Of a stretch of 64,000 nt of DNA, positions 306 through 43,923 are shown in pieces. The notes beneath the pieces are model-generated. The model was not told the origin of the DNA. It saw nothing but the letters and a program-made list of their open reading frames with translations, and made no database searches. Location: the NCBI GenBank assembly GCA_964187785.1, contig OZ076414.1, positions 68,882,001-68,946,000 on the forward strand. Direction: 5' to 3'. Made by a program: the position numbers and the translations under genes. Every line of letters begins with the position of its first letter. Within the stretch, counting starts at the first letter, position 1. The stretch is from Amphiscolops sp. MND2022 (Eukaryota).

Positions 306-321
306 TCTGGAATAGTTTTTA

Positions 322-339
322 TGGCGACCACAGAGAGAT
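322..339 (+). promoter_or_regulatory. Primer-binding site, tRNA-Arg(UCG)-like
   Basis: TGGCGACCACAGAGAG resembles the complement of a metazoan tRNA-Arg(UCG) 3' end (TGGCGACCACGAAGGGA, recalled). It starts 16 nt after the LTR end. Confidence 0.7.
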
Positions 340-819
340 ATTTTTTTTATTTTCACGTCCCAGTAGGTGCAACTCATGCTTTCCAGCCCCGGAGGGTCCA
401 GATCTAGGAGAAGCTTTTTGGAGTGTCCTAGATTGTTTTTATTGCTTTTTTTGAGCTTACTAGGTTTTCTGCTAACGGAATTACCGCGTTTTCTGCATGT
501 TTCCGAGGTCTCGAACAAGAATTAGACAGTTTCAAACGGTGTACCCCCTTTCGCCTTAAGTGTACTTGTTGAAAAAGCTATTCCGGCCTATCCGGCACGT
601 GTTTTAAAGGGCTTTCAAGCTTCTTTTTAGCTAATTGGTAATGTACAGGGACTGAGAGAACACTGCTAGCTGAGTGCAAGACGTCAGGTCCTCCACGTCG
701 CACCCTTCACCTCCCCTTCAACTGCCGAATCTACGACGACAGCTGTGTTATTTCGTTCCCCTTGTATTTAACGGCCCAAAAAGCGTATTCCAAGGCCTAT
801 TCCTACATAAACTAACTGG

Positions 820-3803
820 AAAAAAACCCAGAGGGTGTTCGGACCGGTTTTTAAAAAATTTGAGCGCAAAAACATCGAAAATAACACCATATTAAGCTTA
901 AAAGCAGATTTTACCAATTTTGAAAGTCAAAATTTTGTAGAACTGAATACGGCCAGTGGGAATACTAGAAAAACGTTACAACAGACCTACAAGGTCAAGA
1001 ACAAAACCTTTTGTTTGGCTAAATTGTGAAAATCGCAAAAAATTCAGCAATTCTTGTTTGAAAATCGTCAAATTTGGCCGTTTCGACCAAATTTGGCAAA
1101 GGCGAAGCCTTGGTCATTAGTCAGCAAGTTTTTTGAGCAGCCTAAAAAACTGTTTGTCGACCTTGGTAGTAAAAAACACTACTACCAAGACGGTTTTTAG
1201 CGATCCCCCATATAAATTGAGACTTTGTCAGTGCTTTTCTTTTGTTACAAATGGAACTGAGTGGAGGACCCCCATAGGCCTGAGTGTCAATGAAACTAAA
1301 CTAATTATTGAAATCACCTCAGTCCCTTGAATAAAATTGTTACAAAGAAACAGCAAGTTCTTGGCGAAAATACATATTTTCAGTACTGTTGCGAGAGTGT
1401 AAGAATTGCAATCTGAAAAGATTTGAGAGACCTTGTTTGGAACCTACCAGGTTTCGCTTGCCTATTTTCTGGTAATGTAGGGGGTGACGTTGCAAACGCA
1501 GAAAACCGCGAGTGATTCCGAGCAGTGGTTGCCGAGAAAAAGTTAAAAACGCACTATTTTTGCGACATTTTAAGGATTCGGCAACCACGTTTTTCGACAA
1601 GTCGAAGTCTCTCCTAACAGGAAGAGCAAAAAACGGATTAAACCATCGTGTAGAGCGCCAAAAGTTACGCTAGTAGCGTGATTTTCGTAGCGCTAGTGTC
1701 AATACTCGCCAAGAGATCTTGAGAAATCTTAGCCGCATGTTTGCTCAGAAAGTGCACTAAGTTGCTGAAAAAACGGAAATTTAGTTGAGCACAGTGTGAT
1801 AGCTTCTGGGTATCACAGCACCTAATTTTTTGCATTTTCGCATACGTGGTACCAAATACCGACAATTTGTGCATTTTGAGCAGCCGGGTACTAGCCAAGG
1901 CTGAGAAATTGACACTTTTGTGAAATTTGATAGCAAAAAGTACCTCTGGTACATCAAGTTTTTTTCACATCGAATCACCATATATTAATCCAGTCGCCTC
2001 CGCGCGGTGTTTTTCCGTTACATGGGCAAAATTTACGCTCGCACACAAGATGTCAGGTAGCTAGGACGTGTAGAGGGCAAGTTTGACCACTTTTGTGATT
2101 TTCACGACATGGTCAATATTTTAGTGAACATTGTCAGGTGACCGTAACATCCACAGAATCAATTTTGGCGCAATCAGAGGTTAATTCCCCACGATTCAGC
2201 CCATATAGTAGACAGTGTGAATTTTTCAGGCCGCTTTTAGCAATAGAATTGATTTTCATTTTTCCCGCACGCTTTTTGTCCTTGTACACACCAGTGAAGG
2301 GCTCAAACGACCCGGACAAGTTTTTACAAAATTTGAGCGCGATAACTTTGATTATACTGCTCAATATAGCACAACAGTCGTTTTTATTAATTTTGACAGT
2401 CAAAAGTTTGTAGAAAAGAGTATGGCCAGTAGGAATACAATCAAAACGCTTCACTAGACCTGGTAGGTCAAGAACAAACCTTTTGATTGGCCTAATTGCA
2501 AAAATTGAGAAAAATTTAGCAATTTTTGTTACAAAACCGCCAACCTTGGCCGTTTTGACCAAATTTGGCAAGAGCGAAGCCTTGAGCGTTAGTTCCCAAG
2601 CTTTTCGAACAGCTCAAACGTTTTATTCTGGAGCTTGCAGTAGAAAACCCCACTGCAATGACTGTTTTAGGTCTCCCCTATACAAATCAAAACTTTATCA
2701 GTGCTTTGCTCTGGATATACATAGACCTGAATGCAGGACCCTCATAGGACTGAGCGGTGTAAAAACAAAACCAATAACTAAAATCACCAAAGCCCCTGAA
2801 TAAAGTTGTTATACTTTTTTACACTACTGTTGAAACCATTAGGAACGTCTGAGAACAGAGAAATAAGAGTTTCTTGGTAAAAACACGTAATTTCAACACT
2901 GTTCCGAGAGTGTGAAAAGTGCGAATTGAAAACATTTTGAGAAACCTTATTTGGAACCTGCCAGATTTCGCTTGCCTATTGCTTGTTAATACAGAGCGTA
3001 AAGTTGCAAACGAAGAAAACCGCGAGTGACTCCAACCAGTGGTTGTTGACAAATAGCCAAAAACGTGTTATTTTTGCTACATTTTGTGAACCCCGGAGTA
3101 GTGTCCCCAAGATAGTTCGAAATCTCCTCTAGTAGGAGTAGCCCTCAACGGGTTGCACAATCGTATAGACCGTTAAAAGTTAGGTTAGTGGTTCAGTTTT
3201 CGTAGTAATAGCATTACTAGTTATTGAGAAATCTCAGCTGCAGATTTGCTCAAAAATCGTATGAAAATGTCGAAAAAAAATCGAAGTTTAGTTGAGCATG
3301 GTGCAATACCTTGCAGGTTTCCCAGCACCTAAGTTCTTGCATTTTCGCATACGTGGTACTAAATCCCGAAGGTTTGGGCAATTTGAGCATTCGGCTGCTA
3401 GCCAAAGCTTGAGAAAATGAAAATTTTGTGATTTTTGACCCGAAAAAGTGGTACCTCGGCTACATCAACGTTTTGTCACTTCGAATTGCCAGATATTGAT
3501 ACAGGCACCTCGCTGCCGCGTTTTTATCTGTTTTGTGGGCATGAGCTACGCTCGCATACCAAATTTCATGTAGCTAGGACGCCGGGAAGGCGAGTTTGAC
3601 TAGCTTTTGTGAAATTCACGACGAAGTCAACTATTCAGTGAACATTGTTAAGTAGCCGTAACACTCACAGAGTCAATTTAGGCGCAATCGAAGAAAGTTA
3701 ATTCCCCACGATTCAGCCCATATAGTAGACGGTGTGAATTTTTCAGGTCGCTATTAGCAATAGAAGTGATTTTTATTTTCCCCGCACGCTTTTTGTCCTT
3801 GTA
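820..3803 (+). repeat. Diverged tandem duplication (~1.5 kb unit) in the leader of element A
   Basis: Anchors recur ~1.47-1.52 kb apart (TTTGAGCGC ~860/~2333; CCCACGATTCAGCCCATATAGTAGAC ~2188/~3705). A single homologous unit lies at ~14680-16170. Confidence 0.8.
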
Positions 3804-5179
3804 CCTTGTCAAACGACCCCAGCAGTACACCGAGCACCCTCAGCACGTCTTGTTGAGTCACTTTGGTTGGTGCTAAAGATTGCGGGTCTCCGAGAAAACT
3901 CTAAAAATCGAAATTCGCGTCCTGACTGCTATCAAAGTCCCCTAAGTGCAAGTTATTCGTTGTGAACGCGCATGCTTGGTACCCTGTGTTTTTTTGGGTG
4001 CTGGAGCAGGTTCATAGGCACTTTAAGAGATTTAGAGTTTGAACGCGGTGCGTGTCAAAACAGAACAACAATTACAGTAGTGGCTACCATAGTTGAGATT
4101 GTTTTTCTGATCTCACTTTTGTCTTCAGGCAAGAAATCACTTCAAGGTCCTTCCTCCTATTTACCTCCAAGGCCTATTCTCAGTCTCTAATCACATTTAC
4201 GTCTTTACTTATGTTCTCCAGAAACAGGGAAGCATGAACGACAAACGGACTTTTCAGACAATCCTGGCGTCTGTAGCGAAGCAGGCTTCTCAAAAAATCG
4301 GTGTTCGTTGCTCGATTCATGTCTAAGGTGTACCTCAGTTCTCGTTACCACAGTGGTGTGAACCATGTCGATGTGAAAACATCGGACAAGAGATACCTGT
4401 TCTCTCCCGAGAGAAATCAACACCAAGCATGATAAAACACCTGAGCTTCGAAGCTCTGAGAACTGCTTTGCCAGCGGCCGTGCTTTTGAACTTGAATGGT
4501 TGCTTGGAACTTGTTTTTAATGCCGGAGACTGTTTTCAAGATCTATCATGCCTGATTTTCGACTTTTATTGGATCTGATCTGTCATCGCTACTGACATAA
4601 TCATCATCTTGAGAAGCAGATTATTTCCATCTCTTACATATACACTGGTGCTTATACTACCTAGATGATACCTTTACCTTTACCTGAGCGTACACTGTTA
4701 ACACAATAGATTGAATGGGGTCTCACTTTTGGTGATAGTTTGAATTTTTGAGCTCTCTTTTTCCATTGGTGCTGGTTATTGTGCGGTTTCTGTTGGCCAT
4801 GAACCACGACACTTTTGCAATACCACTGATGCTACTTTTATTTTCACTTTTCAAGTCCTATTGTGCATTTTGTAACACCTAACCTATCAGGTGGGCCCCC
4901 GGCTAGTGTGGAACCTGTTTTGATGAGTGCTTTTCATACTTATAAATATGCGGTAACACGAAGTGCTAATTATTTTGTGCGAAAAGGAAAGTTGCGAAAC
5001 GTTTTGAACACAATGCTAAGTGTCTAAAGTTGCTAATGCTTTTCCAGTCCAAGAACCCATTGTTGGTATGGAATCCAAGGAAGCCTGCTAGGTTCGCGCC
5101 AAAACACTGGATGGTGGCAACCAAGGTGTGAACATCCTCTGTCGTTTGTCGAGGGCGACAAACAACGGCCCGGGGAGGA

Positions 5180-5736
5180 TTTAACGTACAGCAAAAGACG
5201 TTGCAAAGTTTCGATCAAAAATTCGAAATGTGCGGTATCAAATAAACACATTCAAGATGGCCGACCCACAGGTACAAGAATCGTAGAAGAACTCCAAAAG
5301 GACACAAGGAGAAGACCCAACCCCCACACCCTCAAGACGATCTCGAAAGCATGAAGACAGAGCCACAGGCAAGGAAGAGAGCGCCGTGTTGTGTCATTCT
5401 ACTCGAAAAGATGCCCCAGACACCCGAAAGAGGGATATTACCAAACAATGGTGTCTCCTTTTTGGACCTCGGAAGTATGTTGGAAGTCGCAGGAGCACGT
5501 TAGGAACATAGGATTCGTTTTTACAGGCTTGTGGGACGTGTCCTGACTTTGAGAGTGCCGGCGCGTCGCCTCAGAGCTCTAACGGATGAGCCTCCTTTAC
5601 GTCAGAATAGTCCACCTGGGAGACCATTTTGAGATAAAAACTAGGGTCTAGGGCTGTAGTAAGACAACGGTCTCCCGTTTAAGCATCCTAGGCATTATCC
5701 CAATTCTAGGATGTACGCTACTAGCTGGACGTTACA
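5180..5736 (+). repeat. 3' LTR of element A
   Basis: Follows PPT GGCCCGGGGAGGA; starts TTTAACG (TGTAACG variant) and ends CGTTACA. Confidence 0.75.
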
Positions 5737-13243: not shown

Positions 13244-13438
13244 AATTCTTCATGGAACTCATAGCTACTGTTTAACCACTTCACGTAACCAGAGGGTTAG
13301 GTCTCCCGGAAAACAATGTTCGGACCTGTCGACCGATTCTAAATAGTACCTGTTCTTTAATTTGACAAGTGCTGAATTCACACTTGCCTGAACTTGGATG
13401 AAAGTATCTCGGAACATATTATCTTAAACCTCACACAT

Positions 13439-14143
13439 CGTAACGTCCACCAGTCGACACCAAAAATTCAATCAAGGACCAAAAAATGTGCGAATCAAAA
13501 TGGCCGACCTAGCAGGTCGTTGAAATCAAAAAAGAACAACAGAAAACGCAAAAAAGAGACCCGCGCAAGACGAAAAAGACGAGAAGACAACATACCAATA
13601 GAGAGACACGTAGTGGGACTCGGAATTGTGCCATCTCACTCAGAAATTGCGAGTTCTTTACGAGGAAATGGCCCGGGATCCAAATATCCCATATTGGAAG
13701 AAAACTCGAAAATTGTGGAATCAATGAGAGAACGTTGGAAGTGTCGATTTTGATTGATTGTCATATTATTATTGTTCATTTGCAGATTTATGGAAATGCA
13801 GGATCTGCTAGATCCTTGTGCTGGAACTTTTGAAGGTTATTTTCATAATAGAATGCTTTCAGACTAAAACCCTGTTTTAGGAACTTGGAGATATGAAGAA
13901 CCGCAAGAACACTTTAGGATACGTTTTTACGTGCTTGTGGGACGTGTCCGGACTTTGAGTGTGCCGGCACGTCGCCACAGAGCTCTAATATGAGGAGTAT
14001 CCACAGCGTCTTGGAAAAGTCCCTACTGAGACCTTTTAGGGATGAAAAGCTGATGTTTAGGTTGTTATAAGACACTGGTCTCTTGTTAAGACATCCTGAG
14101 CATTATCCCAGTTCTAGAATGTAGCTGCTAGCTTGACGTTACA
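13439..14143 (+). repeat. 5' LTR
   Basis: CGTAACG...CGTTACA, 705 bp, ~95% identical by eye to 30697-31402. Confidence 0.95.
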
Positions 14144-14159
14144 TCTAGGAGAGTTTTTA

Positions 14160-14177
14160 TGGCGCCCCGCAAGGGAC
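14160..14177 (+). promoter_or_regulatory. Primer-binding site, tRNA-Arg-like
   Basis: TGGCGCCCCGCAAGGGAC, 14/18 to TGGCGACCACGAAGGGAC; 16 nt after the LTR. Confidence 0.65.
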
Positions 14178-17100
14178 ATTTTCCATCTTTTCGCCATAAT
14201 AGGAGTTTTTCCTGCTTTCCGGCCCTGTTAGGTCTGGATATAGGAAAACTTTCTGGAGAGTCCTAGATTGTTTTTTTATTGCCCTATTTTAGCCTTACAG
14301 GCTTTGTATTAGTGTTTTTCCTGCGTTTCCTGCATGTTTCCAGGGTCTGAAATGAGAAATAACCGATTTATAACAGAGTACCGAATGAAAACCGTTCCTG
14401 TCTGTTGAAATCGAACATCCGGCCTCACCGGATTCTGTTTTAAAGGGTTCTGTAGCCTCATTTCACCTTATTTGCAATGTATGGGGACCGAGAGGACGAA
14501 CGCTGAAGGTTTCCACCAGCTGCGATGACGTGGTGACGTCCTACACGACGACTCCTCCTGTACCCTCGTGATTGCAATGTACCCTCGTCAAACGGGTGAA
14601 ATCACCAATTTTCTTAATTTTGAAGCCCAAAAAGCATATTCCCAGGCCTATTCCCACAAAAACTAGCTGAGAAAAATACCCAGCGGGTGTTTGGACCGTT
14701 TGTGAAAAAGTTTGAGCGCGAAAACCCAGAAAATCATCTTATCTATAGCTCAAACCTCAATTTTACAAATTTTGAGAGTCAAAAATTTGTAGAATAGAAT
14801 ACGGCAGGTGGGAATAGAATGAAAACGTTTCATTAGACCTGTTAGGTCACGAACAGAAAAATTTGCTGGGCTGAATGTCTGAAAAAACGAAAATTTTAGC
14901 AGTTTTTGTTGAAAAAACATCAAATATTGGCCTAAAAGACCAAAATTGGTGAGGGCGAAGCCTTAGGCGTTTATTCCCAAGCTTTTAGATCGGCTCAAAA
15001 ACGTTGTTCCCGAGCTTGGTGGTACGGAACATTACTGCCAAGACAATTTTTAGCATTCCCCTATATAAATTGAAACTTTAACCCCTGGTTTTCTTTGATA
15101 TACATAGACCTGAGTAGATGACCCCATAGACCTGAGAGTTATAACATCAAAACTAATAATTGAAATAATCCCAATCCCCCGAATAAAGTTATTACACCTT
15201 CCTACTGTACTATTAGAACTATACCGAACATCTGGTAACCGAGAAATAAAAAGTTCCTAGGGAAAACACGTGTTTTCATAAGTGTTCCCAGAGTGTAAAA
15301 GGTGTAACATGAAAAATTTTTGAGAGACCTTATTTGGAACCTGCCAGTTTTTGCTTGCCCATTTTCTGTTAGTTTAGAGTATAAAGTTGCAAACGCAGAA
15401 AATCGCGATTGATTCCAACCAGTGGTTGCCGAGAAATAGCCAAAAACCTGTTATTCCAGTGACAATATCGGTACACTGGAATAGCGTTCCTGAGACAGGT
15501 CGAAATCTCTCCCAGCAGGAATAGCCCAAAACGGACTGCACCATCGTATAGACCATAAAAAGTTACGTTAGTGGTGTACTTTTCGTAGCGCTACCATTAT
15601 TAGTGATTGAGAAATCTTAGCCGCACTTTTGCTCGAAATTTGTACGAAATTGTCGAAAAAATCGAATTATAGTTGAGCATAGTGCTATACCTTCGGAGTA
15701 CCCCAGCACTAAAGTTCTTGCATTTTCGTACGTACGGCAGTAGATCCCGACGATTTGTGCATTTTGAGCAGCTTTATACTGTCCAACTTGGAGAAATTGA
15801 CAATTTTGTGAATTCTGACCCCAAAAGGTGACACATAGGGTACATCATAGTTTTGTCAACTCGGATTGCAGAATACTGAACTCGGCACCCTGCTAAACTG
15901 TTTTTCTGTTACGTGGGTAAACTTCACGCTCGCATCCAAAATTTCAAGTAGCTAGGAAGCCTAGAAGGCGAGTTTGACGGACTTGTGTGAATTTCACAAT
16001 ATAGCCAATTTTCGTAACAACATTGTTAAACGATCCCAAGTCACATATTATCAATTTTGGTGCAATCGGCGGTAATTTTCCCACGATTTGGCCACTATAG
16101 TATACCGCGTTATATTATCAGGTCAATAGCAGCTCTAGAAGTGATTTTCACCCTTCCCAGACGTGCAAATTGGTGACAAAATTACCGATTTGATGAAATT
16201 CTACGAAAAATACCAAATCTTTCGTAGACGTAGTCGCAAGGGAAGACTCAAGCGACTCTAGTTCCACACTATACACCCATAGCACGTCCAGTTGAAACAA
16301 TTAGAATAGAGCTAGCCAAACCCTAAAATCTTGGGTTTGTCAAAAAACTGTCTGCGAGACATAGAAGTGAAAAACACCAAAATCGTGCTTTTTCCACCTA
16401 CGGCCATCAAAGTCATCTAATTACGAATTAATAGCTGCAGCCACGTACATTTCAAGTGGGAAGTACCGTGTGAAAGCTAGAAAGCATTTAGTAGCTTCCC
16501 AAGAAACTTGACTTTGAACGCGGCGCGTCTCGAGACAGAATATCAAGAACAAAAGCATTGAGATGTGTTAAGATTCAAGTTTCCAAGGATCGCACGGCAA
16601 TCAGAATAGTAAAACACCCTCGCTAGCTAATGTCCCAGCACCTACTCACCCCAAGGTCTACTTCTCGAATCCCCTTCAGCAGTAACCCTACTTGTACTCC
16701 CCAGAAATAAGGCAGTGCGAGTGACATAGAGTACGTTCGGAGAAGTGCAGTGTGACGATTCGCGGGAAATATCTCCTGGAAGTCCAGCCAACGTACTAAA
16801 ACCTCTTTGTTCATTCCAATCAAATAGTCTGCGGCTGGATAAAACCCAATTTAAAGTGAGTTAGCCTTAGCGTCCTCCAAGTAGTATCTCAAAAAAAACT
16901 TGTGTTTGATCTTAGTAGAATAACTATCTCCAGTTAACCTTTCTGTTCTGATTAATGGTGATTAGCACCAATGCATGTAACCGGGAGTCTCGAGTTTGTG
17001 AGAGTCAACTAGTCCTAATTTAGAACATAGAAGACAATCACGAGCTACTAGCCCCAAAACCCAAAAACACAGTAGTTTAGTTAAAATATTAGAGGAAGCG

Positions 17101-17217
17101 TAATTCAACCTTCGAGTTTAGTTAACTGTTGTTCCAATTTGTGAAGGGGAAGGATTGAGTAGAAAGTCAAAGAAAAGTTTAATTGAGTGAAAAAGCAAAA
17201 GATCGAACGAACGAAAA

Positions 17218-19700
17218 TGAGTTGGAATGAATGGGAATACTCTATGCCATCGAATGAAACACTTCGGGAAACCAATAGCATCCACGCCACCAACCCAATC
17301 GCAAGCGACATAGAGGATTGGTATAGGCTCAGCAAACAAGTAGAAGTAGCACCACCAGACACGGTCACTAACATATTTTTAGACGACGAAATGTCGGATA
17401 ACGTATCTAACGCCAAGCAAAACTTACGCATCGCGCAAGCAAACCAATCCAATTCCTCGCAAGCGTCACCAGATAGCGCTGAAATTGCCAACCAGACTCC
17501 CATAAACAACGGCAATGTGTGGCCGCCTCTGAATGCCTCCGTGATTGCTACCGGGGACTGGCCGAACTCAAACAGAAAAGTAGCGACGAGCTCAAACATT
17601 AACAAATGGGTGAAAAACATGAATGTGGGCATGACTTTAGGAGAGATTACAGCTCATTCAGTCACAAACGCGGACCTGCTGGGTTCTGGAATCCCGATAT
17701 TTGAAGCTAGCAGAAACACTTTGGGCAACACCGCGAACTTCCCTCCAGAAAGCAAGCTGGGAAAAGACCAGAAAAGAAGTGGCACTCCAAAATTATACCT
17801 TCGCAACACCACCATTGCTGGGTCCCAACACATTGCGACTCGAATGTACAGCAACATCTCAGCATTCCGATGCCGGCAATGTAGCATCTCCTAATTCGAC
17901 CATTACCAGAGGCATGAAAGAAACTGAAGCCATAAGGAAAGAATTTGGACACGGTATGGAGCAATTGAAACAGGTCCAAACAAAGCTGACCAAAGAGAAC
18001 AGCGACCATGTCCAAAGAGCAGAAGTCTTAATGATGGAAATGGACGAGTTGCGAAAGGAAGTAAAAGAAATAAAGTTGGAAGGCCGCGTTAACCAAGGCA
18101 AGATAGAGATGACCATGGCAACCGTCAAGGACCTGACCGAGAGACGAATATCAGAGATAACAGCAATAATGGCACAACGAGATAAACAAGCCGACGAACG
18201 TCTAAAATGTATGTCTGAAATGATGCATCGCAGGGACTTGGATGTTGACAAACGCATGATAGACCTCATGACTACGGTCCAAGACCTAACCCTAGGGGTG
18301 AAAACCGTAGCAGCAAGAGTGCCAAACAGCCCCGCACCAGTGCCGCTGGCACTAGACCCTGCGAACATACCATCCTCAAGCGCACCTCCAACGCAACGAA
18401 CAACCTATCGCGAAGTCGCCCAACGCCAGATGAATATCAAACCCAGCTATTCGAAACAACCAAAACTGCAAACACCAGCAATGTACAAAAAGGTGCCAGA
18501 CGAACCCAAGTCTTGACAGCAAGTGATAATGAAATACGTCACTGTGACATATCTGGCCCTCCCTCATTGGACCCCTACGCTAAAGGTGCTTCAACGACTG
18601 GAGATTATTATTCCCCGACCAGTGCTCAAATGCCCATAGACATGAGGACAACATCTGGTGATTCTGAATAACAAACCGCTGTCTCCTCGAACCCCGGTAT
18701 GAAACGCTCAGCACTATCCTACTTTAACAATCCACCACGGCCGTTGGCCTCTAGCACGCAAAGAAAAACTGTTTCAAGAAGGAATCTGAACCCTGTGACA
18801 ACTGAAGGAGTCACTAAAGATAATATTCCGAACGCAATACACAACCAAGCGTTAGCCGAAGCAATAACCACAGCAATGTCAAAAGGTCTGGAACCGCTGT
18901 TAACCACAAAAGCCACCAAGAATAAACCAACCAAATACCGCGGTACGCGAGATGGCATAGTGGACGGTTGGCTCATGCTGATGAAGCGTTATCTAGAAAA
19001 AGTTCATGCTAAGGACATCCCACTAGACAAAGCATGGACTACTGTGGAATTTCTAGAAAACGAAGCAAGGGATTAAATCAGAAGCAGAACGCGATACAGA
19101 CAAAAAAGTCTTCGCATTACTAGCGAGAAGATTCGGAACGGGATCCAACAAGATCCAAATACAACAACAGTTCCGCACGCGTAACCAATCCCCTGACGAA
19201 GACTACATGCAATATTTGGATGCATTGGAAGGCTTGCGCAGCCAAGGTTTTCCCCATGAGGAGGTTGCGGTGAGACGCTACGAAATCATGCAAAGATTTA
19301 TTGAAGGAGTACGCAGTTTTGAGCAACCTCGCACTCATGTATGCGCAAGAGCAGTATGTGGATACACCCCCAACGGTGTAAGCCCTACGATTCACAGTAC
19401 AACAGTACCTGCGCACGCGTGGTTCGGCCCGTTCGGAGACCTTTCCTGCACCTCCACAACAACAACTACAACAACCTGCCTCAGCCAATCCACAAAACCA
19501 GGTACAGGCACCAGCCGCTCAAGTGCCATCCAATGCCCAACAATTCCTGCAACGACCCGCAACCTTCAGACAACAACCGCAGCGAACGTGTTTCAACTGT
19601 GGAGACCCCTCGCACTTCGTGGCTGATTGTCCCATGAAGGACCGAGCACGGAAGCCCGTACAGCAGGTAGTCACTTCCTGTCGAACGAACATGACCGGAG
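17218..19700 (+). pseudogene. gag: gag (disrupted): low-complexity N-terminus, coiled coil, capsid-like region, CCHC zinc knuckle
   Basis: ORF pieces 17187-17894, 17701-18516 (heptad-rich) and 18699-19076 (KYRGTRDGIVDGWLMLMKRYL). Knuckle CFNCGDPSHFVADC at 19589-19630. Confidence 0.85.
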
Positions 19701-26232: not shown

Positions 26233-29200
26233 ATGGACCAATCATCTAGAAACCGACTACCATGTCCACTCGGGCCAGTATCTTCTATGTCCTCGCTGCC
26301 TGTCGCAGAGCCCCAAACCCACACTGACCAGCCTGGTCTGACCCAGGCAAATCTTCAATCTGATGTCTCACCAACACTGGCCACCAGGATAGCCATGCTA
26401 ACCGCCCAAATGCAGACATTAGAAACACACCCTGATTTCACGCTCTCCAGTTCCATTGGAATTGGCTCCTACCGTCGCACAGCTGAACTCCACAACGGAA
26501 CATGGCAGGGCCATGACCTGAATCAACACTTTGATGACAACTGATCAAGCTTGCGTTACAGTGAGCCTGCTAGGCCTTCCCCCATGGCACCCCTTCGATC
26601 AGACCTGCGACAAACATCTCAGCCGCCAAACTCTGCAGCTTCCGTCAACACTGGAACCGAACCGCCAACGTCTACTGCCACAACACAACTAATTACATGT
26701 CTACTACCAGCCATGCCTCCACCGATGCTAACATACACCTCAGCTTCTGCCTCCACATGTATACGACGTCTTCACGACAACGACCCTCATCTCATACGCC
26801 CTTCAACTTTCAGGGGGGAAGGGGTAGAGGAAGCAAGCACCAGCACATAAAACACAGTCAATGCTACCGAAAACACTACGACAAACTTAACGCAAAGAAC
26901 AGTAGTAATGCGAAACCCATTCGATGTGCCCATCATGAAAGATGTAGTTGGATGCCTGGACTCATATGTTGCTTTATTGCCACAACCACCAACGGACCCA
27001 CAGCACCTGAAAGGCTTCCAAACTAATCCGGAACTACAAGAACAACAAAAGATACAGGAAAAAAACAGAGACAAGCTCCCATCGATCTCAGAAACGTGTT
27101 GAACCAAAAGGAGCAAAACATAATAGAACAATTGGCCCAAAAGAACAGAGCAAGAGAACTAGCCAATGCAAACACGCCTAGCTCCAGTTCAAGCCTCTCC
27201 CCAGTACAACAACCAGAGGCCAGACGAGTACGATTTTCCGACGAACTCCTCTCGCAGACAGAGGCACGACAATTCGACATTGCCACTAGAGACGCGGTGC
27301 GTCTGCAAAGAGAAGCCAAACCAGGAAATCCAAACTCTGGCATAGATGAACAAAAATTCGATACTGGTACTAGCAAAGGAGACCCAGAGAATGTGCAAAA
27401 TTTAGAAAAGGCTTCAATTGGAATGCACTATCTACGGCCCATGAACAAACCAACTTTGCTACTAGACCGCATTCCCCAATGGTTCGAAAGAGTAGAAGAG
27501 GACCTTCGCAAGGATATGTCTTCACTCACGAGACCATTGTCATCAAGGACAAAGCTAGATATACAACGACCAGCAAGATACGACGAACAACTGCTGCGAG
27601 GCAAGGACTTCAAAAGGGACCTATCAGCATTACTACCCATGGGCAAAAAAGTACTTCAAAAAACAAGCATCGCCTTATTCATAGACTCGACAATGAAAGC
27701 AACGGCCATTATGAACAACACTTTAATGGATGTTCGAGTGATGAATCTCCCCTGCTCATCGTTAGAGGAAATGGCCGAGGTGACGTGCAAGGTCTTCGGT
27801 CCCACCGCAAATCACTCTGAAACAATAAAATTTCCCCCAATACGGATCTACATCAATATAATTGACCAACTGGCCCTTCGAGGAACACTGAAACACTTTG
27901 AAGGAGGAAATCGAAGGCTAACAGAAGCAGTGATGACTGGCGAAGTAGTGGCCTACATTGAAACCATGAGGAATGTGATTGGAAAAGTACAGAGAAAGAA
28001 GCCCACAGTAGGCGTAATCTTCGTGTCACCCCCAGGATATATATATATATATATATATATCTACCATTACCACTCCAACATTGCTGTACCTACTATCTGA
28101 AGCCGCCCACGCCCAGAACCTTCATTTCTACCTTGTAGCCTCAAACCTAAGGTTCAGTGCCAAGACCTGGCGCCCATGTGAGAATTCATACTCTGCACTC
28201 TGGGCTGAAATATCAAAGGCTCTACAAGCCTATATTGGATACAAAGGAAACTCGCAATTTACAGCCGATGATGCCACCGCCTTCGACTTTGGGATGCAAA
28301 TGGCACACCGCACCTTTGACAATAATGGGATGCGCCGCAACAGGGACCCAAACGAACACGAGAGAGCGAACATGATTGACAACATATGGTTCGAAAAAAG
28401 AGACGAGTCAACTCTGGACGAAAAGACGCACAACGCGAAATTCCATATAGAGCTGGTAGCTCTCTCCATGAAAACAGAGGAGATCTGACAAACTCGCACT
28501 GAAGTGACTGTTTTCCGAGTAGCGACACAAGCAATTGACTCAAAACCAAACATTGTCTCTCCAACCTTAGTGCTACTATCAATATTAGCCCAGAAAACAG
28601 CACAGGAAAACCAAACCAACCCACGACACTCATACCAATCATGGCACCTAGAACTACAGCAAACCCTAGCCGAAATGGCCGAACGTCATGGAATCCCATT
28701 CCCGATATTCCTGTATAATATCTCACCTTTCTGGGTACCCAAAATAGTACAGCGCAAGAACAATTTAGATGATCAACAAAATGTATGTAGAAGCCATGCA
28801 ACGGGCCAAGATCAGTAAAATCCTCGCCTACCTGATGGCCGCTGGCCTGAGCTTGTTCTATAAAGGCCCAACACACCTGGTACAAGAATTAGTTCTGAGC
28901 AAAGCCAACTCTTGCCTGCTTAGCTTCTTGATATTTGCAAAAAACCAACGAGGCTGGATCAACGCAATTCTGAAAACACTGGATCCCGCGGGCGCTCTGA
29001 AGCTCAATGCCCAACTAGCAGAAAACATCGAATCGATGCTGGCCTGGATCTTTTCAGCGTGGATGAACGTCTCAGGCATCATGATCACCATAGACAACCC
29101 TGACACGCTGAACCAGCAAAATAACGATAAAAACGTGCCAGGTTTCTTCTTCCCCTCGCAACTTGCCAGCCTAATGCTAGTGGAAACTGAAGATCTAATC

Positions 29201-30301
29201 CCAGTGATTGCCCCGATAGTCTGGCCTATAATTGATCCCATGATGGCTCTCAGATACCCTACACAACCACTCAGAGTAGCTGCTAGTTCACCCACACTAT
29301 CCATACTGCACTTTGTGGATCCTCAGGACGATGCCAGACCACCTGGATTTCAGACGCTAGTACGCGACTTTGCCAAGTTTCGACCCCCAATGGCGTACAC
29401 CATTATCAAAGACAAAAAGCAAGTCGAGCACAACTTCGTAACTCTGATCCGAGCCAGAGCGCGGTGCGCAATACCAACGCTGTACTTGACTAACGCTGTA
29501 CAACGTCTGGGAGGACGAAGAAAAGGTACAACGCCAGAAAAGCTTCAATATCAAAATATTCAAGACACCTCCCGCATGTATAACCCCCGGACGAGACCAT
29601 TGGATAGCACCGCAGTAGCCTTGACTAACATCACATGCTGGACAAATCCGCCGATAGTAGACCAGACTATCTATCGCAATTACCAAATGCTAAATGCAAC
29701 CATACCTAAAATCGCAAAAGAACCGAAACGAAAAATCTTGCCCATCAACACAGAAGCCCCAAGCAACCCAAAAATGGCGATGGAAATTTTCATGAAGCTG
29801 GTAACTAACCAACAAGAGGAAAACAGCTCAGTGTGCACAGGCTATCTAACTGCAATAGAAACCTATAAAGACACTTCCAAGAGATATAGACGCCAAGACC
29901 TTGCCAACAAGCTGCCAGAGCAATGCCCGGTGGGCTCCTCCACAGAAAGACAGGCAGTGGGACAAGAAGAAAACTCTACCAGTGGCAGCACAACATCTGT
30001 GTTATCTACCATCACTCCAGAAGATACCCCGCAAGTTATCACAGCAGCGAACATGGATACATCCACTAATGATACTAGTCAAGCCAATCGGATGTCAGAA
30101 GACAATATAATTGTTCCAGACAATAACGTAACGATGCCACCATACAGTCCAGAAAACATACCAGTATTTATATCCCAGTCGGAGGTGGCTGATATAGAAT
30201 CAGAACTCAATGAATTGCCCAGCGTGAACCCCCAAGAACTGCTGTCAATGGATATGCTACCAGAAACATTAAACGAAGCGCCACATGAACAAACTGATTG
30301 A
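26233..30301 (+). pseudogene. ORF3 (~1350 codons, disrupted) in env position, with SGNH-like domain
   Basis: Pieces 26182-27102 share one frame, separated by single stops. They continue via frameshifts through 27096-28100, 28081-28818 and 28769-30301. IALFIDST...FVSPPGY...WRPCENSYSALWAEISKAL pattern at 27660-28240. Confidence 0.7.
28037..28060. repeat. (AT)12 microsatellite
   Basis: Directly read; lies at an ORF3 frameshift region. Confidence 0.95.
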
Positions 30302-30696
30302 ATAAAAGACGCCAACAGTGAACAGTCCCAGCATGGAACTGAACCAATCAAACCCAAACTCACCAAATACAACATTAACCCCACTCAGTGCAATTATTAA
30401 AATACCATGCGCTATTTTAGTTACCAAATTTTGAATGCACTCTTATTGATGCAATTACCTAGCAGGTATGTCCCAGCTTGGTGCCTTCCTGCCCATTAAC
30501 AAAGAAGTGCAATTAAAGTCTTGCATTGAAATATTCTTAATTTTGCTGGTAGGAGACGTGAGAGTGCTACCACTCCCCAAAAGAAGTAAAATTCAAAAAA
30601 AGGAGGTTGAAAAATGATGTTGCTAAAATTTACTAAATGAATAAGAATGCGCCCTTCTCCGTTTGCCGAGGACGACAAACAACAGCCCGGGGAGGA

Positions 30697-31402
30697 TGTA
30701 ACGTCCACCAGTTGACACCAAAAATTCAATCAAAGGCCAAAAAATGTGCGAATCAAAATGGCCGACCTAGCAGGTCGTTGAAATCAAAAAAGAACAACAG
30801 AAAACGCAAAAAAGAGACCCGCGCAAGACTAAAACGACGAGAAGACGACATACCAATAGAGAGACACGTAGTGGGACTCGGAATTGTGCCATCTCACTCA
30901 GAAATTGCTAGTTCTTTTTGAGGAAATGGCCCGGGATCCAAATATCCCATATTCGAAGAAAAACTGGAAAATTGTGGAATCAATGAGAGAACGTTGGAAG
31001 TGTCGATTTTGATTGATTGTCATATTATTATTGTTCATTCGCAGATTTATGGAAATGCAGGATCTGCTAGATCCTTGTGCTGGAACTTTTGAAGGTTATT
31101 CTTATAATAGAATGCTTTCAGACTAAAAACCTGTTTTCGGACCTTGGAGATATGTAGAACCGCAGGATTTCTTTAGGATACGTTTTTACGTGCTTGTGGG
31201 ACGTGTCCGGACTTTGAGTGTGCCGGCACGTCGCCACGGAGCTTTAATATGAGGAGTCTCCTCGGCGTTTTGGAAAAGTCCCTACTGAGACCTTTCAGGG
31301 ATGAAAAACTGATGTTTAGGTTGTTATAAGACACTGGTCTCTTGTTAAGACATCCTGAGCATTATCCCAGTTCTAGAATGTAGCTGCTAGCTTGACGTTA
31401 CA
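30697..31402 (+). repeat. 3' LTR, preceded by PPT GCCCGGGGAGGA
   Basis: TGTAACG...CGTTACA, 706 bp. Confidence 0.95.
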
Positions 31403-32649
31403 CATTTTTTCCTGAAGGAAATCAAAATTAACAATTGTACTGTACTCTAGAGCTTTGAAATAAATAGCTCTGCTTCGAGCTAAAGTCTCTCGTTGTGTTT
31501 ATGACTGGTGCCAACTGAGGTCGCTTTGGTAAAATTAATAAGAGGCCCAGCGGCAGTAAATCTTGACAAAAACTGATTCCGAAAAATTTGGGTTTTTCCA
31601 GCTAAAGTGTGAGCAGCCAGAGTTGGCAATCTGACTAAATTCACAGAGAGAGAAGTCTCCGAATCATGCCCAAGTACCATATTTGAAAAGTTTCTATAAA
31701 ACCTCGTAGTGCCAAAAAACTTCATTGAGGGGACCTATGAGGCTGATGAAAACTATTTTTGCTGACTAAAAAATAAAACATACCCCAGAGCACACATTTT
31801 AGTGAGCGACAACGTTTTTATAAAAGTCGAACATTGTCAAAAAAACCCAAAAAGGTCTGGTATATAGCATGAAAGCGAAAGATTACAAAAGTGTATACGA
31901 GGAGAATGAAGAAAACAATTGTTTTGACTAAATTGCTTTTTCGATGTTATCAAGAGAGATCAAGTCATCAAACTTATGCTATCCTATATCAAAAAAGCAA
32001 GCCACGAACAGCTCAAGCGAAGCTCCGATTTGATCAAATCGGAGCGTCGGTCATGTTTCAAAAAGAGCAAATTGTTTCGATTATGCGAAAGGACACTTTT
32101 GTGAAAATCTTTATCAGAATTGCAGAGCCGAAAACAAATCCAAAGTATACACTAAGACTCGAAAACCGCTATTTCAGAAAATTTAAAAAAAATGTTTCTC
32201 GTTACAAAAGTCCGTAGTGTGGGAAAAACCCAGATCGCAAAACGCTTATTCCAAGCAAAAAATTTCCTTTGAGTGAAGGTGGGTATCCTTCGACCAAACG
32301 AAATATTTTCATAAACGCCAAAAAAGCGATTGTCACAGGTGCTAATGAAACTCTCATTCGGACCACATGACGTAAATATATCCAAAGGTGTCACTCCTAA
32401 GATCCGAGAAAAATATACCTCACACAAATTTCCGAAAACAAAACACTTTGTGACGTTGTGAGGTTTTTGAACTGTTTCCAAAATCTGTATCAAAGAATAA
32501 TTTCTAAAAGTACCATTGTGCCAAAACAATTGTAAGGAGGCCCTTTAGCCCAGAAAATGCTTCGTTTTAGTTTGCTTGACTTTTCTCATCGATCGGTTCA
32601 ATTGCTTTCTGTGACAGTGTGAAATCTAACCATTCAGTTAGGGCTTGCG

Positions 32650-38898: not shown

Positions 38899-39115
38899 TG
38901 TAACGATAAGCTCTCACCATGTCGTCATTTCGTCAAAGAGTGGTCGAGGTACCTACAGTATGGGTATATGCCCGGGACAGGCTCCCATGACCATAGGCCC
39001 ATTTTGCCTCCTTCGGGTAAAAGTTGTCCCGTCAGGGGGGATTTCGCCTCGTGTGGAGTACTCGCCCACTTGAACTAGTCTTTTATTGCTATCGGTAGTG
39101 TGAATTACACTTTTG
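38899..39115 (-). repeat. Truncated LTR fragment of family C
   Basis: Reverse complement of the 3' end of the 43116-43889 LTR (TGTAACGATAAGCTCTCACCAT...GCCCGGGACAGG). Confidence 0.8.
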
Positions 39116-40014
39116 CATTGAAATTACCACTCAGATAGCTTTTAAAAATGTGGATGGGGACAAAGATAAATTCTCGTTCCAGATTCCATAGTGAAATCAG
39201 TACCTCACCAGCTAAACATTCCAACAAATTAGTAATTTACTGCATTACTCGCATGGCAAGGTGACAATCAAGGGGGGGCGCAAGCACGAGTGCTTGTTTA
39301 GGCAATGATGGGACGCATTTCAGATTATTTCAACACTAAGAAGCAACATGCTAAAGGAAAAGTAGATAAGGGTATGAAAAGAGTCTATTTAATTATTGAG
39401 TTTGAGTCAATTTCAGCGTTTCTTCAACATACGTTCATTCTTGTTCTTCTCGTTCTTCTCGCAAATGGATCTCTGCCACTATTTGCCGTTCTGGCTCTAT
39501 TCAATTCGTCGGGCAGGTACTTGATAAAGACAGGGAGTCTTTCAGCGGAATATGACGAAATCGCCACATTCTAGTTCCCAGTCCAATGCTTGAACGAAAT
39601 TTTTAAAATTCGAAAATTTTTGTCGGTAAGAGGTCATCGTTACAATAACGAAACGACAATACTTGCCAATAGAACAAATTTTGTCACTAGAATTGTGATT
39701 TTAGTTGAAGCGGCCAAGAATCCTAATCTTTGTTTAAATTTGACGTTTGAAACAACCGTTAGTGACTATCATGTCTGAACTTGTCTTGAAATTGAGCCGC
39801 CGTTCGAAACATCTAACAATTTGTTCAGGAAAATCTTGTTATAAAATTTCAAAAATCATCAGCTTTGACAATGGGTACAACTTTTGACTACGTTATCATA
39901 ATTTATATCTACAGCTTTCATTAGGTTCATATGATTCCTAAATGATGCAACACACCCTATAGTTCCATACGTTTCCATGTATTGAACCAAATGAGTAAAT
40001 GATGACAAACACAA

Positions 40015-40786
40015 TGTAACGGCAAGCTGTTATCGGTCGCTTAACGCGTTAACAGAGGTGGAGGAACCTGCAGGAATGGGTGATTCGCTCGTGACAGTCG
40101 CCCATCGCCACAGATCCATTTTGCCTCCAGGGGTGAAATACGTCCCGGGGCCGCGGGTGCTTCGACGAATACTGTCCAACCGGTCCTAGTCTTTGATTGC
40201 TAATAGTAACGGGCATCTTTCTGGCTCTCTAAAGACCACCGCTTAACTAGCATATAAAAACAATGCCAAGAATAAGGTAAATTTCCAGTTCCAGGGTGAC
40301 ATGTGAATAAGATCTAAAATTGGGGAATAAGATCTAAACTAGCGCTAACGCTACTGAATACAGCCAAAATCACTGAAAATACATGAAAACAGGCACGAAT
40401 ATGGCAAACCACACAGCTACAAGCTGGGGCGCAAGGGCTCCAAGCACCAAACAAGGATCTTTAGGCGAAAAGACTCATTTTTACGGTTTCCGCTACATAG
40501 GGTAGCATAATACTGAAAATCGATAAAACCGGTGTTAGCACCTCAAAAAGAATCTATTTTCGGATGTTCTTGCCGTCTCTGGCTTCTGTCATGGCGGCGC
40601 GCCCGTCTTTTTGCTCGTTCTTGCTCTTTGTTGTCGAAGTACCTGCCAATTTCGTGGAAACAGCGAAAAGAGCAATCACATGCTCAGTGCCACGTCACAC
40701 ATCGGATTAGAATTTTTGACAAAATTTCTGGACATGTCAAAGTTGCAAAATCGGTTGATATTGCTGTACCAGAGCTTGCCGTTACA
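40015..40786 (-). mobile_element. Solo LTR (772 bp), diverged subfamily of family C
   Basis: Perfect 14-bp terminal IR TGTAACGGCAAGCT/AGCTTGCCGTTACA; strong homology to 43116-43889 (GTGGCACTGAGCATGTGATTGCTCTTTTCGCTG); flanks CAA/CAA. Confidence 0.9.
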
Positions 40787-41962: not shown

Positions 41963-42866
41963 GTTCTAAATTTAAATACAGCTGAGGCTACTTTGATGTG
42001 AAGTAACTTCAGTCACGCTATAAACTCCAAAGCACGGTCATCTTCGATGTGCCACTCGAGAAGCTTTGATTACATCACTTAAGTGCCTGAGAGGTCGAAA
42101 TGTGAGTACTATATGATCGTTATAGTAACTGATTAGCGAATATTTAGCTTATTTGGCAACAAATAAAAACCAAAAATTGCTGTAAATTTCTAAATAAGTA
42201 TATTCATAGAAAGTTACCTTTCACCAACCATACTGCTCATGTTGTCCGAAAGCTAAAGAAATTTTCCGGTTTGATGTACAAAAGGAGCCGATTGTAACTA
42301 ATAAGATACCATCTATCATCTCATACGGTCTATCAGTGTCTGGGAGTGCGGTGAAAACAAACATCGAATTGAGGAATTGATTGAAAAAGCTCTTCAGCGA
42401 ACGCTAAGTCTGAAGGCGAAATAAAACATCGTGAACGGCAAACTTCTAAGGCTCAAGGGGCGATTAAGTACTCCGTATCGTTAAGTCGCTATTTTTTATC
42501 AATTTATCAAAATCTCAATGTCCTTTGGCTTCAAAAAAATTCGAGCTAGATTTCTTCTGTGAAAAGCTTTTTTCAAACCAAATGTTCCACAGTGCCGAAA
42601 ACACCTGTAATATAGTATAGTTCTTCGAATCGAACAAAACTGTTAGGAAATAGAAATTACGTGGAGGACCTTTCAATTATTTCAACCCTTCCAAGAATCC
42701 TCTCATCCTTTTTAGCCCGATATTTCACTTCAAAAGTCGCCTTTTAGTTCATAGAAACTGGCTCATACGGTGCATGTGTTTCAAGATTAACTTATCAATT
42801 ATTGAAACTTGTTCCCGCAAACTCCCTTCTTGTTTTTTGTCCGCAATTATTTTGCCCACCTTCCAG

Positions 42867-43115
42867 TGAAGTTGTTTATCAACATTTGAAACAAGGACTC
42901 AGCAAGTGCTTTCCTTCATGCTTCGATGGCATCTGCTTCGGTTGCCCCACAAGAAACAGTGTGAAAACAGCGGATGAAAACCCGGCTAAACTGGATGGTA
43001 GCCCATCTGGCTCTAGAAGTTCCAGAGGCAGCGTGTTCAAAATTGAAACTGTCAATCACAGAAATATCAAGCGAAAAATTAAGAAACAACAACAACTGCC
43101 CGTTTTTCAATGTTT
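42867..43115 (+). other. Exon-like Cys-motif coding segment, interrupted by element C
   Basis: Acceptor-like CACCTTCCAG|TGAA; encodes QHLKQGLSKCFPSCFDGICFGC; paralogous to 61153-61375. Confidence 0.4.
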
Positions 43116-43905
43116 TGTAATGGCACCCTCTGAGACAGCAAAATTAGTCGATATTGGAATTTTGGATTTGAACATGTTCAGAAAACTTCTGAAAAATTCT
43201 AATTCGAGATTTGACGTGGCACTGAGCATGTGATTGCTCTTTTCGCTGTTTCAACGAAATTGGCAGGTACTTCGACAACAAGAGCGAAGATCGAGAAAAA
43301 AACATAAGGCCAGCCGCCCGCACAGACGCCAGAGACTGCAAAAATCTCTGAAATTAGACTCTTTTGAAAGTGCTAACCTTGATTTCAGCAGTATGCTACC
43401 TTACGTAGTGAAAACCGTAAAAATGAGTCTTTTCGTCTAATTCACAAATCTGTGCCTGTGGTGCCCCAGCTTGCGAGCTGAATGTGGATGTTGCCAAATC
43501 GCTGTTGTGGACGAGATTGCTGTACATTGTTGTAAGTTTATGGCTACTTTGACAATTTTAGATCTTATTTCGTAATTTTAGATATTATTCCCAAAGTCAC
43601 CCTGAATAACGAAAATTTAACATAACTTCCTTTCGGAACGTTTTTAAAGACTGTCTAAGTGATGGTTTCGAAGAAAAAGCGTAATTCGCGCTACTGACAG
43701 CAGTTAAAGACTGGATCAGGCCGGCGAGCACTTCACAAGAAGCGGAATCCTCCCCTGACGGGACAGTTTTTACCCGAAAGAGGCAAAATGAGCTCATGGT
43801 CATGGGCGCCTGTCCCGGGCAAATACCCATATCATGTGTTCCTCTGACTCTTATGGTTACGGCGACAATGGTGAGAGCTTGTCGTTACATAGAGACACCA
43901 TTTTT

Positions 43906-43923
43906 TGGCGACCACAGAGGGAT
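43906..43923 (+). promoter_or_regulatory. Primer-binding site, tRNA-Arg(UCG)-like
   Basis: TGGCGACCACAGAGGGAT, 16 nt after the LTR end. Confidence 0.75.

Follow-up and report, generated by a model that had tools for sequence, protein, structure and literature searches.

We find that a long spacer separating the end of the 5′ LTR from the primer-binding site (PBS) represents a real, lineage-wide trait of one Gypsy lineage with thousands of copies in the genome of Amphiscolops sp. MND2022. The same clade has a second oddity, a target-site duplication (TSD) of 3 bp, which is better measured than the first and had been missed by an earlier, sequence-only reading of this DNA. We consider it probable that these elements are primed normally by a host tRNA, that the spacer is copied into the cDNA, and that the element's own integrase drops the resulting 15–16-nt flap and inserts with a 3-bp stagger.

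Elements in the analysed window

The window is a 64,000-nt stretch of assembly GCA_964187785.1 (contig OZ076414.1, positions 68,882,001–68,946,000, forward strand). It contains the following features, given in window coordinates with their strand.

1..305, +, element 1 5′ LTR (709 nt overall, starting ~400 nt upstream of the window)
273..312, +, element 1 predicted RNA hairpin, U5-IR-like (base-pairing of U5 to the end of the LTR and ~7 initial bases of the spacer; a prediction with weak covariation)
306..321, +, element 1 spacer, 16 nt, with a T-run at its end
322..339, +, element 1 PBS, 17/18 to the 3′ end of host tRNA-Arg(TCG)
5172..5179, +, element 1 polypurine tract (PPT), immediately upstream of the 3′ LTR
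5180..5736, +, element 1 3′ LTR, internally shortened, 83% identity to the 5′ LTR; non-coding element
13436..13438, +, element 2 3-bp TSD, left copy
13439..14143, +, element 2 5′ LTR, 705 nt
14144..14159, +, element 2 spacer, 16 nt
14160..14177, +, element 2 PBS, 17/18 to the 3′ end of host tRNA-Lys(TTT)
17187..25035, +, element 2 gag-pol, interrupted by frameshifts and stop codons; CX2CX4HX4C knuckle, protease, reverse transcriptase (RT), RNase H and integrase, in Gypsy order
30689..30696, +, element 2 PPT, immediately upstream of the 3′ LTR
30697..31402, +, element 2 3′ LTR, 95.6% identity to the 5′ LTR
31403..31405, +, element 2 3-bp TSD, right copy
38899..39644, −, same-clade solo LTR flanked by a 3-bp TSD
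40015..40786, +, same-clade solo LTR flanked by a 3-bp TSD
43113..43115, +, element 3 3-bp TSD, left copy
43116..43889, +, element 3 5′ LTR, 774 nt
43890..43905, +, element 3 spacer, 16 nt
43906..43923, +, element 3 PBS, 18/18 to the 3′ end of host tRNA-Arg(TCG)
50941..50948, +, element 3 PPT, immediately upstream of the 3′ LTR
50949..51721, +, element 3 3′ LTR, 97.7% identity to the 5′ LTR; element without pol
51722..51724, +, element 3 3-bp TSD, right copy

Re-reading the window confirmed the three 16-nt spacers at the positions first reported, each followed by TGGCG(A/C)CC. The accompanying claim that the spacer does not belong to the LTR is equally sound: the 3′ LTRs close with the same heptamer as the 5′ LTRs (at 5736, 31402 and 51721) and run into unrelated DNA. 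A spacer that is part of the LTR is ruled out more widely, as none of the 46 3′ or solo LTR copies examined continues into the first 5 nt of its family's spacer. Element 1 is a poor specimen, with an LTR pair of just 83% identity and no exact TSD in its flanks.

Spacer length is constant within families

A genome search for the LTR-end heptamer followed by 0–30 nt and the start of the PBS yielded 3,769 matches, against 24 for a reversed-pattern control. Among the first 100 matches listed, all from contig C1, the spacer measured 16 nt in 57 and 15 nt in 39, and lengths of 11, 13, 18 and 23 nt occurred once apiece. Within a family the length is constant (element 3 family, 13 copies with 16 nt and one with 17 nt; element 2 family, 11 copies with 16 nt; a third family, 14 copies with 15 nt). 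The value of exactly 16 nt put forward by the sequence-only reading is therefore correct for the three elements of the window, whereas genome-wide the spacer is 15 or 16 nt long (96 of the first 100 matches listed), set by family and inherited, and does not vary freely. Calling the three elements independent was an overstatement, because the long-spacer families make up one Gypsy clade, in which all pol-bearing families group; elements 1 and 2 share 70–80% of their DNA sequence.

The copies with 11- and 13-nt spacers are 70–75% identical to each other and look old, and no partner LTR was found for them within the next 10 kb. In the Arg families the spacer itself contains a CA, which swamped a search for short-spacer users of both PBSs. 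Integration does not take place at this internal CA, which the other family group lacks. The sole match in that search with a PBS apparently adjacent to the LTR turned out to be a mutated 16-nt spacer.

The displaced PBS matches host tRNAs

Matching the PBS to host tRNAs, a check named in the earlier reading, gave 17, 17 and 18 of 18 positions complementary to tRNA 3′ ends at offset 16 (elements 1, 2 and 3, respectively); no other offset gave more than 9 of 18 for the same tRNA. Host genes for both tRNA-Arg(TCG) and tRNA-Lys(TTT) are present in arrays. For these two tRNAs we found no better PBS adjoining the LTR and no closer match (best 6–8 of 12), and there was no strong self-primer within the element's own LTR (best 11-mer complement, 8–9 of 11). 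The non-standard tRNA geometry once offered as an explanation for the displacement finds no support here: the PBS complements a tRNA 3′ end over the canonical 18 nt, at offset 16 and nowhere closer for the two tRNAs compared. This also distinguishes the elements from the self-priming Tf1/sushi chromoviruses, whose PBS complements the 5′ end of their own RNA.

Insertions are flanked by 3-bp target-site duplications

In the long-spacer clade, 36 of 38 insertions show a TSD of exactly 3 bp, where 1.3 would be expected from mismatched flank pairs. The two others differ by one base each, and none of the 38 has a TSD of 4–8 bp. All seven young copies, with LTRs 99.6–100% identical, carry the 3-bp TSD. 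The target bias is symmetric: relative to the centre of the 3 bp, A occupies the third base before it in 24/36 and T the third base after it in 20/36. A symmetric integrase that cuts with a 3-bp stagger would be expected to give this pattern. A 5-bp TSD combined with LTRs shortened by one base on each side fits just one of 36 sites. As controls from the same genome, we used seven other LTR pairs with TGG 0–3 nt from the LTR; none had a 3-bp TSD (5 bp in five, four of them exact and one with a mismatch; 4 bp in one; none found in one), and one of the seven carries the same end heptamer as the long-spacer clade.

Coding capacity and placement within Ty3/Gypsy

Judged by their sequences, the elements belong to Ty3/Gypsy (Metaviridae). 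Pfam domains on a natural copy follow the order protease (331–452), RT (733–893), RNase H (959–1091) and integrase (1347–1516), without a tether, and a zf-CCHC domain with a CX2CX4HX4C knuckle scores above the cut-off. With solved structures as the only named references for the Pol comparison, Ty3 RT-RNase H was the best among reverse transcriptases (E 2e-77 over one stretch), and Ty3 was also closest to the integrase, both by sequence and by predicted fold. This integrase has HHCC and DDE signatures and a GP-containing C-terminal motif of the GPF/Y type, which aligns to the GPF motif of Ty3 with H in the third place. Yeast Ty3 (PDB 4OL8, 7Q5B) is thus the closest solved relative, and the elements share with Ty3/Gypsy the TG...CA LTR termini (in the four families examined), the tRNA PBS, the PPT adjoining the 3′ LTR, the knuckle and the Pol order without a tether. 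Unlike typical Ty3/Gypsy members, they have a PBS 15–16 nt from the LTR, long leaders, an LTR-to-LTR distance of 7–18 kb in most pairs and a 3-bp instead of a 4–6-bp TSD, the latter being typical of the group and not a formal criterion. LTRs measure about 690–775 bp, and internal parts reach 17 kb.

LTRs that are 100% identical and reading frames of near 3,000 codons are signs of recent activity. Proteins of the sister clade (P0113 group) reach at most 56% identity to anything in this genome and therefore come from other genomes; we found no relatives of the sister clade among viral contigs.

An LTR–LTR junction retains the spacer

Across 80 loci and stretches tested, we found four LTR–LTR contacts, one of them clean. 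This junction (G000:C5:22090499-22090531) reads from the end of U5 through 15 of the 16 bases of the spacer and the final two bases of the PPT into the start of U3; its LTRs are identical at 711 of 713 positions, and the entire unit lies between 3-bp TSD copies. Such a signature would be expected of cDNA with the spacer on its U5 end and 2 nt on its U3 end. The junction shows the spacer to have been present on the minus strand, not which agent removes it. Two rearranged copies are broken at the spacer/PBS boundary (G000:C9:30064687 and G000:C11:18400799), versus none at the one control position, ten bases into the spacer, in one family group. A second, ambiguous junction of 7 nt (G000:C7:17446049) links two subfamilies through a microhomology of 4 nt. 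In a metagenome scan for the junction pattern, the spacer lengths of the 117 stretches returned were evenly spread; we took them for chance matches, and the scan yielded no junction from another species. A search of sequencing runs for the LTR–PBS stretch listed none, which weighs neither for nor against the overhang.

The fossil junction and the two boundary breaks thus support the earlier suggestion of a cDNA overhang, and the unusual processing it called for would fall to a cutting step that we ascribe, with due caution, to the integrase. Since 15–16 extra bases occur together with a 3-bp TSD, the integrase likely trims a long overhang, five to eight times the 2–3 bases of retroviruses. A host tRNA would prime in the ordinary way at a PBS lying 15–16 nt beyond the LTR end, with the spacer likely being copied onto the right cDNA end; the element's integrase would then likely cut after the terminal CA with loss of the 15–16-nt flap, while the left end would lose about 2 nt, and the processed ends would join the target with a 3-bp stagger. 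Against a flap of this length stands the description of retroviral integrase processing as 2–3 nt only (PMC12789967).

That known activity would suffice if a host or particle nuclease first removed all but a few bases of the spacer end and the integrase then carried out ordinary 2–3-nt processing. The 7-nt junction could represent such a part-trimmed end, and the T-run may fray readily at the terminus. We nevertheless regard prior trimming as unlikely: the clean junction misses at most 1 nt, no breaks occur ten bases into the spacer, the Pol stretches scanned (the RNase H–integrase linker and the C-terminal 769 residues) contain no extra nuclease domain, and an exonuclease would not need a length fixed at 15–16 nt.

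A different substrate is also conceivable, namely a two-LTR circle: once the ends had been joined, the integrase would cut after both CAs, discard a 17–18-nt junction piece and carry out insertion at a 3-bp stagger. The genome does hold one junction with just this structure. The scheme follows one proposed for foamy virus and resembles that of IS3-family insertion sequences, which transpose via circle junctions and generate TSDs of about 3 bp. It would amount to a bacterial IS3-like pathway operating inside a retrotransposon, which strikes us as quite improbable. Foamy virus integrase is described as cutting its own LTR–LTR junction in vitro, but circle junctions are by-products in ordinary retroviruses (PMC1180852), and therefore one fossil does not favour the circle route. 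Moreover, a short palindrome makes up the junction of foamy virus, whereas here the CAs lie 17 nt apart around a non-palindromic filler, and the integrase itself is of an ordinary Ty3-like kind.

Least probable, in our view, is that the spacer never reaches a cDNA end, owing to odd LTR-adjacent priming or to RT skipping a hairpin, and that the clean junction arose by chance deletion. Tandem arrangements with a shared LTR are frequent here (5 of 85 LTR hits), so deletions between such copies can occur and could mimic the junction; the comparison for closer matches, moreover, covered two host tRNAs. However, both breakpoints of such a deletion would have to fall within 1–2 nt of the predicted cDNA ends, and two further copies are broken at the spacer/PBS boundary. 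Inheritance of the spacer requires that it be copied, and neither a closer tRNA match nor a strong LTR self-primer emerged from the comparisons described above.

Trimming of a long flap by the element's own integrase, the reading we prefer, has a counterpart in prototype foamy virus, whose integrase likewise treats the two cDNA ends unequally and for which an LTR–LTR junction likewise serves as a record of the ends. The asymmetry described there is 2 versus 0 nt (PMC1180852); here it would be about 16 versus 2 nt.

Predicted pairing between U5 and the spacer

Pairing in the RNA between U5 and the first half of the spacer is the likely reason why the spacer is retained, a role suggested by folding predictions; the T-run would remain open beside the primer. 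Support for this pairing is modest. In the hairpin alignment 95% of cells pair, with just one pair changing on both sides, probably in one event. The observed hairpin scores were reached by 9–12 of 500 shuffles, and for 5 of 12 copies, 10–71% of spacer shuffles fold at least as well. The LTR–PBS distance of Tf1 is about 9 nt, and Tf1 is a self-primer, whereas these elements would use a full tRNA primer at a distance of 15–16 nt. Structured 5′ regions are described for the Tf1 RNA (the 'pretzel'; bioRxiv 10.1101/2022.12.06.519325) and for retroviruses (the U5-IR stem; PMC3601003). In the U5-IR stem of Rous sarcoma virus, U5 pairs with PBS-adjacent bases, while here the pairing is predicted only.

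Relation to known elements and significance

Published LTR–PBS arrangements include a distance of 5 bp for Diaspora/Calypso (PMC1142308) and a 1-nt overlap of PBS and LTR for the gypsy lineage (PMC3286476). We found no case of a long LTR–PBS spacer or of long-overhang processing, and Troyka as the only LTR elements with a 3-bp TSD, in a literature search that covered few subscription papers and Repbase reports. Gypsy TSDs are described as typically 4–6 bp, and the 3-bp TSD was among the grounds for proposing Troyka as a superfamily (Kojima 2025, PMC12440569). In that account, Troyka shares with our elements the 3-bp TSD and a Gag-Pol in PR-RT-RH-IN order without a tether. It differs in its termini (CG...CG, against TG...CA in four families examined here), its dimensions (LTRs of 100–400 bp and internal parts of 1.5–7.7 kb, against 690–775 bp and up to 17 kb), its finger (CX2CX8-10HX4C, against CX2CX4HX4C) and its described lack of a GPF/Y motif, against a GP-containing motif here. 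In the text consulted, the distance from LTR to PBS is not stated for Troyka. The published description of Troyka thus sets our elements apart, as they lack its defining features.

A 3-bp TSD is accordingly not limited to Troyka, and the consequences extend to annotation as well as to mechanism. LTR finders whose default settings demand TSDs of at least 4 bp would miss this clade with its thousands of copies. The clade provides an abundant, recently active natural case for two integrase parameters thought to be tightly bounded, namely the length of DNA tolerated past the terminal CA, which is 2–3 nt in retroviruses, and the stagger of the cut in the target, 4–6 bp.

A family-specific spacer between LTR and PBS

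The window holds three LTR elements, whose spacers lie between the 5' LTR end and the PBS:

1..5736 (+), element 1; spacer 306-321; tRNA-Arg(TCG)-type PBS
13439..31402 (+), element 2; spacer 14144-14159; tRNA-Lys(TTT)-type PBS
within 13439..31402, broken gag-pol of element 2: CX2CX4HX4C knuckle, protease, RT, RNase H, integrase
43116..51721 (+), element 3; spacer 43890-43905; tRNA-Arg(TCG)-type PBS

The sequence-only reading had placed exactly 16 nt between the terminal heptamer CGTTACA and the PBS in each element, and we indeed found 16-nt spacers at all three places, each followed by TGGCG(A/C)CC. As it had also held, the spacer lies outside the LTR: the partner LTRs stop at the same heptamer and then run into unrelated DNA. 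The spacer sequence follows none of 46 3' or solo LTR ends, ruling out that it is a piece of the LTR.

Across the 1.07-Gb genome of the species, the heptamer followed by 0-30 nt and the PBS start yielded 3,769 matches, compared to 24 for a reversed control. The first 100 matches, which all come from contig C1, include 57 with a 16-nt and 39 with a 15-nt spacer (96 of 100, set by family), plus one each of 11, 13, 18 and 23 nt. Spacer length is family-specific: the element 3 family shows thirteen spacers of 16 nt and one of 17, the element 2 family eleven of 16, and a third family fourteen of 15; odd lengths, where inspected, occur in old, diverged copies. "Exactly 16 nt" thus describes the three window elements, whereas genome-wide the length is 15 or 16 nt by family, rarely another.

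In seven control LTR pairs from other families of this genome (TGG judged by position; three rows without a clean LTR pair set aside), TGG lies 0, 0, 0, 0, 1, 2 and 3 nt from the LTR. Their TSDs are 5 bp in five pairs (four exact, one mismatched) and 4 bp in one, with none found in the last; one pair has the same terminal heptamer as the long-spacer elements. The Tf1 distance is reportedly ~9 nt. Accessible text of published descriptions gives a distance of 5 bp (PMC1142308) and a 1-nt overlap (PMC3286476).

Primer tRNAs and a predicted hairpin

Host tRNA-Arg(TCG) and tRNA-Lys(TTT) genes were located via the PBS complement, and all primer comparisons cover these two tRNAs. At offset 16, elements 1, 2 and 3 match the tRNA 3' ends at 17, 17 and 18 of 18 positions. 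No better PBS was found nearer the LTR (at most 9 of 18 at other offsets, matching tRNA); internal segments of the two tRNAs reach 6-8 of 12 there, and the best self-primer candidate within an element just 9 of 11. Because closely related LTRs and spacers carry either an Arg or a Lys PBS (stretches L013, L024 and L015; window 306-339), primers would seem to have been switched inside the clade, spacer length unchanged.

In the element 3 family only, 8 bases shortly downstream of the PBS (window 43927-43934) are complementary to the anticodon loop of the same tRNA-Arg, either by chance or because the contact with the primer may extend this far. Both primer tRNA genes form long tandem arrays (L036, G000:C9:57.54-57.58 Mb; L032, G000:C7:5.30 Mb), in which some Arg copies have an anticodon reading TCA.

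The first 4-9 spacer bases are predicted to pair with U5 in most of 12 folded copies, leaving the T-run unpaired, and 7 of these copies outdo 93 or more of 100 spacer shuffles in folding. When 16 copies from one family group are aligned, a predicted 13-pair hairpin spans the LTR end, with 95% of cells pairing; two-sided change occurs at one pair only, and 9-12 of 500 shuffles score at least as high. This putative hairpin resembles the retroviral U5-IR stem as described in the accessible text of PMC3601003.

Three-base-pair target-site duplications

From 90 LTR hits, we dropped five without a terminus and one duplicated locus, unpaired 5' or 3' LTRs being unscorable; seven young pairs (nine fetched, two without a matching pair) and two window solo LTRs brought the set to 38 insertions. 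An exact 3-bp TSD flanks 36 of them (1.3 expected from mismatched flank pairs), including L080 and L081, probably one duplicated insertion, and one LTR pair accepted only by allowing a mutated last LTR base. The other two differ by one base each, and no flanks share 4-8 bp. Four further copies met later also have a 3-bp TSD, and it accompanies the long spacer in every family scored. Target preference is symmetric: of the 36 sites, 24 have A three bases upstream (p 3e-5), 20 have T three bases downstream (p 0.003) and 32 have A/T at the centre. Twice (G000:C1:92082984 and G000:C4:68788570), a second clade element has landed at a distance of exactly 3 bp from an older LTR end, which may reflect only this bias towards an upstream A.

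Affiliation of the elements

The Pol domain order is that of Gypsy. Among solved structures, RT-RH and integrase are nearest to Ty3; a model of the integrase fold (mean pLDDT 77.5) likewise agrees with the integrases of Ty3 and foamy virus. Open frames of close to 3,000 codons and identical LTRs are found in many copies across the genome, while elements 1 and 3 lack pol. The three elements had been taken as independent, a view that the tree contradicts: in a quick build of 30 RT-RH rows, the long-spacer families group together (SH-aLRT 100), alongside three proteins represented only by database entries. The other LTR elements of this genome fall outside (23-34% identity). The long spacer is thus a single inherited state rather than three independent events.

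Troyka also has a 3-bp TSD, called unique among LTR retrotransposons in the accessible text of PMC12440569. Since the termini, size, zinc finger and GPF/Y features given there for Troyka are absent here, the elements are Gypsy with a Troyka-like stagger, set apart from Troyka by its published description. Our search, which left out Repbase reports and most subscription papers, found no published account of a long spacer combined with 3-bp TSDs; Repbase may hold such families.

Several further features accompany these elements. In element 2, a frame 3' of integrase (25155-25916) shows a weak likeness to a macro domain found in a related Pol (21% identity, pairwise E 3e-5), and two long frames (357 and 510 aa) without a convincing Pfam match lie between pol and the 3' LTR (27027-30301). 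Element 3 contains a 449-aa frame of unknown kind (48242-49591) and a 1.17-kb tandem duplication (44707-47068). Leaders are long (840-3804 and 14692-16179), with a 1.5-kb unit doubled in element 1 and also present in element 2. In L154:3254-4060, ~250 residues extend from RNase H to the integrase zinc finger; their helical part is predicted confidently, and look-alikes are pieces of other retrotransposon Pol. Tandem copies with one common LTR (PPT-LTR-spacer-PBS) account for 5 of 85 LTR hits (L076, L083, L084, L206, L208), and PBS hits spaced ~14 kb at G000:C1:34.04-34.10 Mb point to at least five elements in one array.

Probable fate of the spacer at the cDNA end

By retroviral logic, all bases from the PBS to the LTR end belong to the right cDNA end. 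The PPT adjoins the 3' LTR in all three families tallied and the PBS lies 15-16 nt off, so the predicted cDNA is lopsided; as integrated copies end at CA, 15-16 nt would be lost at the right end and ~2 at the left. We favour, as the probable route, a single cut by the element's own integrase that would drop the 15-16-nt spacer flap. Prior trimming by another nuclease seems rather unlikely; the Pol stretches scanned contain no extra nuclease domain. In accessible text, processing by retroviral integrases takes off a di- or trinucleotide and their target duplications span 4-6 nt (PMC12789967), and in foamy virus the two ends are already known to be processed unequally and the junction to be cleaved (PMC1180852); use of a circle junction as the integration substrate is here an improbable route.

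Least probable of all is a cDNA without the spacer, on which fossil junctions bear. Two pattern searches for LTRs in head-to-tail contact matched 145 sites (100 listed; control 125) and 81 sites (all listed; control 42), mostly unrelated, and 4 sites among 80 loci and stretches tested have LTRs on both sides. At G000:C5:22090499, the order is U5 end, 15 of 16 spacer bases, the last two PPT bases and U3. Its LTRs differ from each other at only 2 of 713 positions (711 identical), normal spacer and PBS follow the second, and a 3-bp TSD bounds the whole unit. Such a structure would be expected of joined unprocessed cDNA ends, fixed later by recombination or dimer integration. The C7 site, a 7-nt junction of two subfamilies across microhomology, is ambiguous in origin, and the remaining two are separate insertions 3 bp apart.

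In one family group, a full spacer lacks the following TG at four sites, two being mutated PBSs and two breaks at the boundary. On C11, the spacer joins leader sequence ~900 nt further on; on C9, a chimeric copy begins at its left end with an inverted 133-nt U5 piece plus the entire spacer, and a duplication of 3-4 bp lies one or two bases away. No breaks were found ten bases into the spacer. These few junctions and breaks support, and do not prove, a spacer-bearing cDNA end. The 16-nt overhang first proposed would be 15-16 nt by family, with backing from one fossil junction, that on C5 with its 15 spacer bases. The elements themselves are a real, well-measured Gypsy clade, from one genome so far, that combines a 15-16-nt LTR-PBS spacer with 3-bp TSDs.
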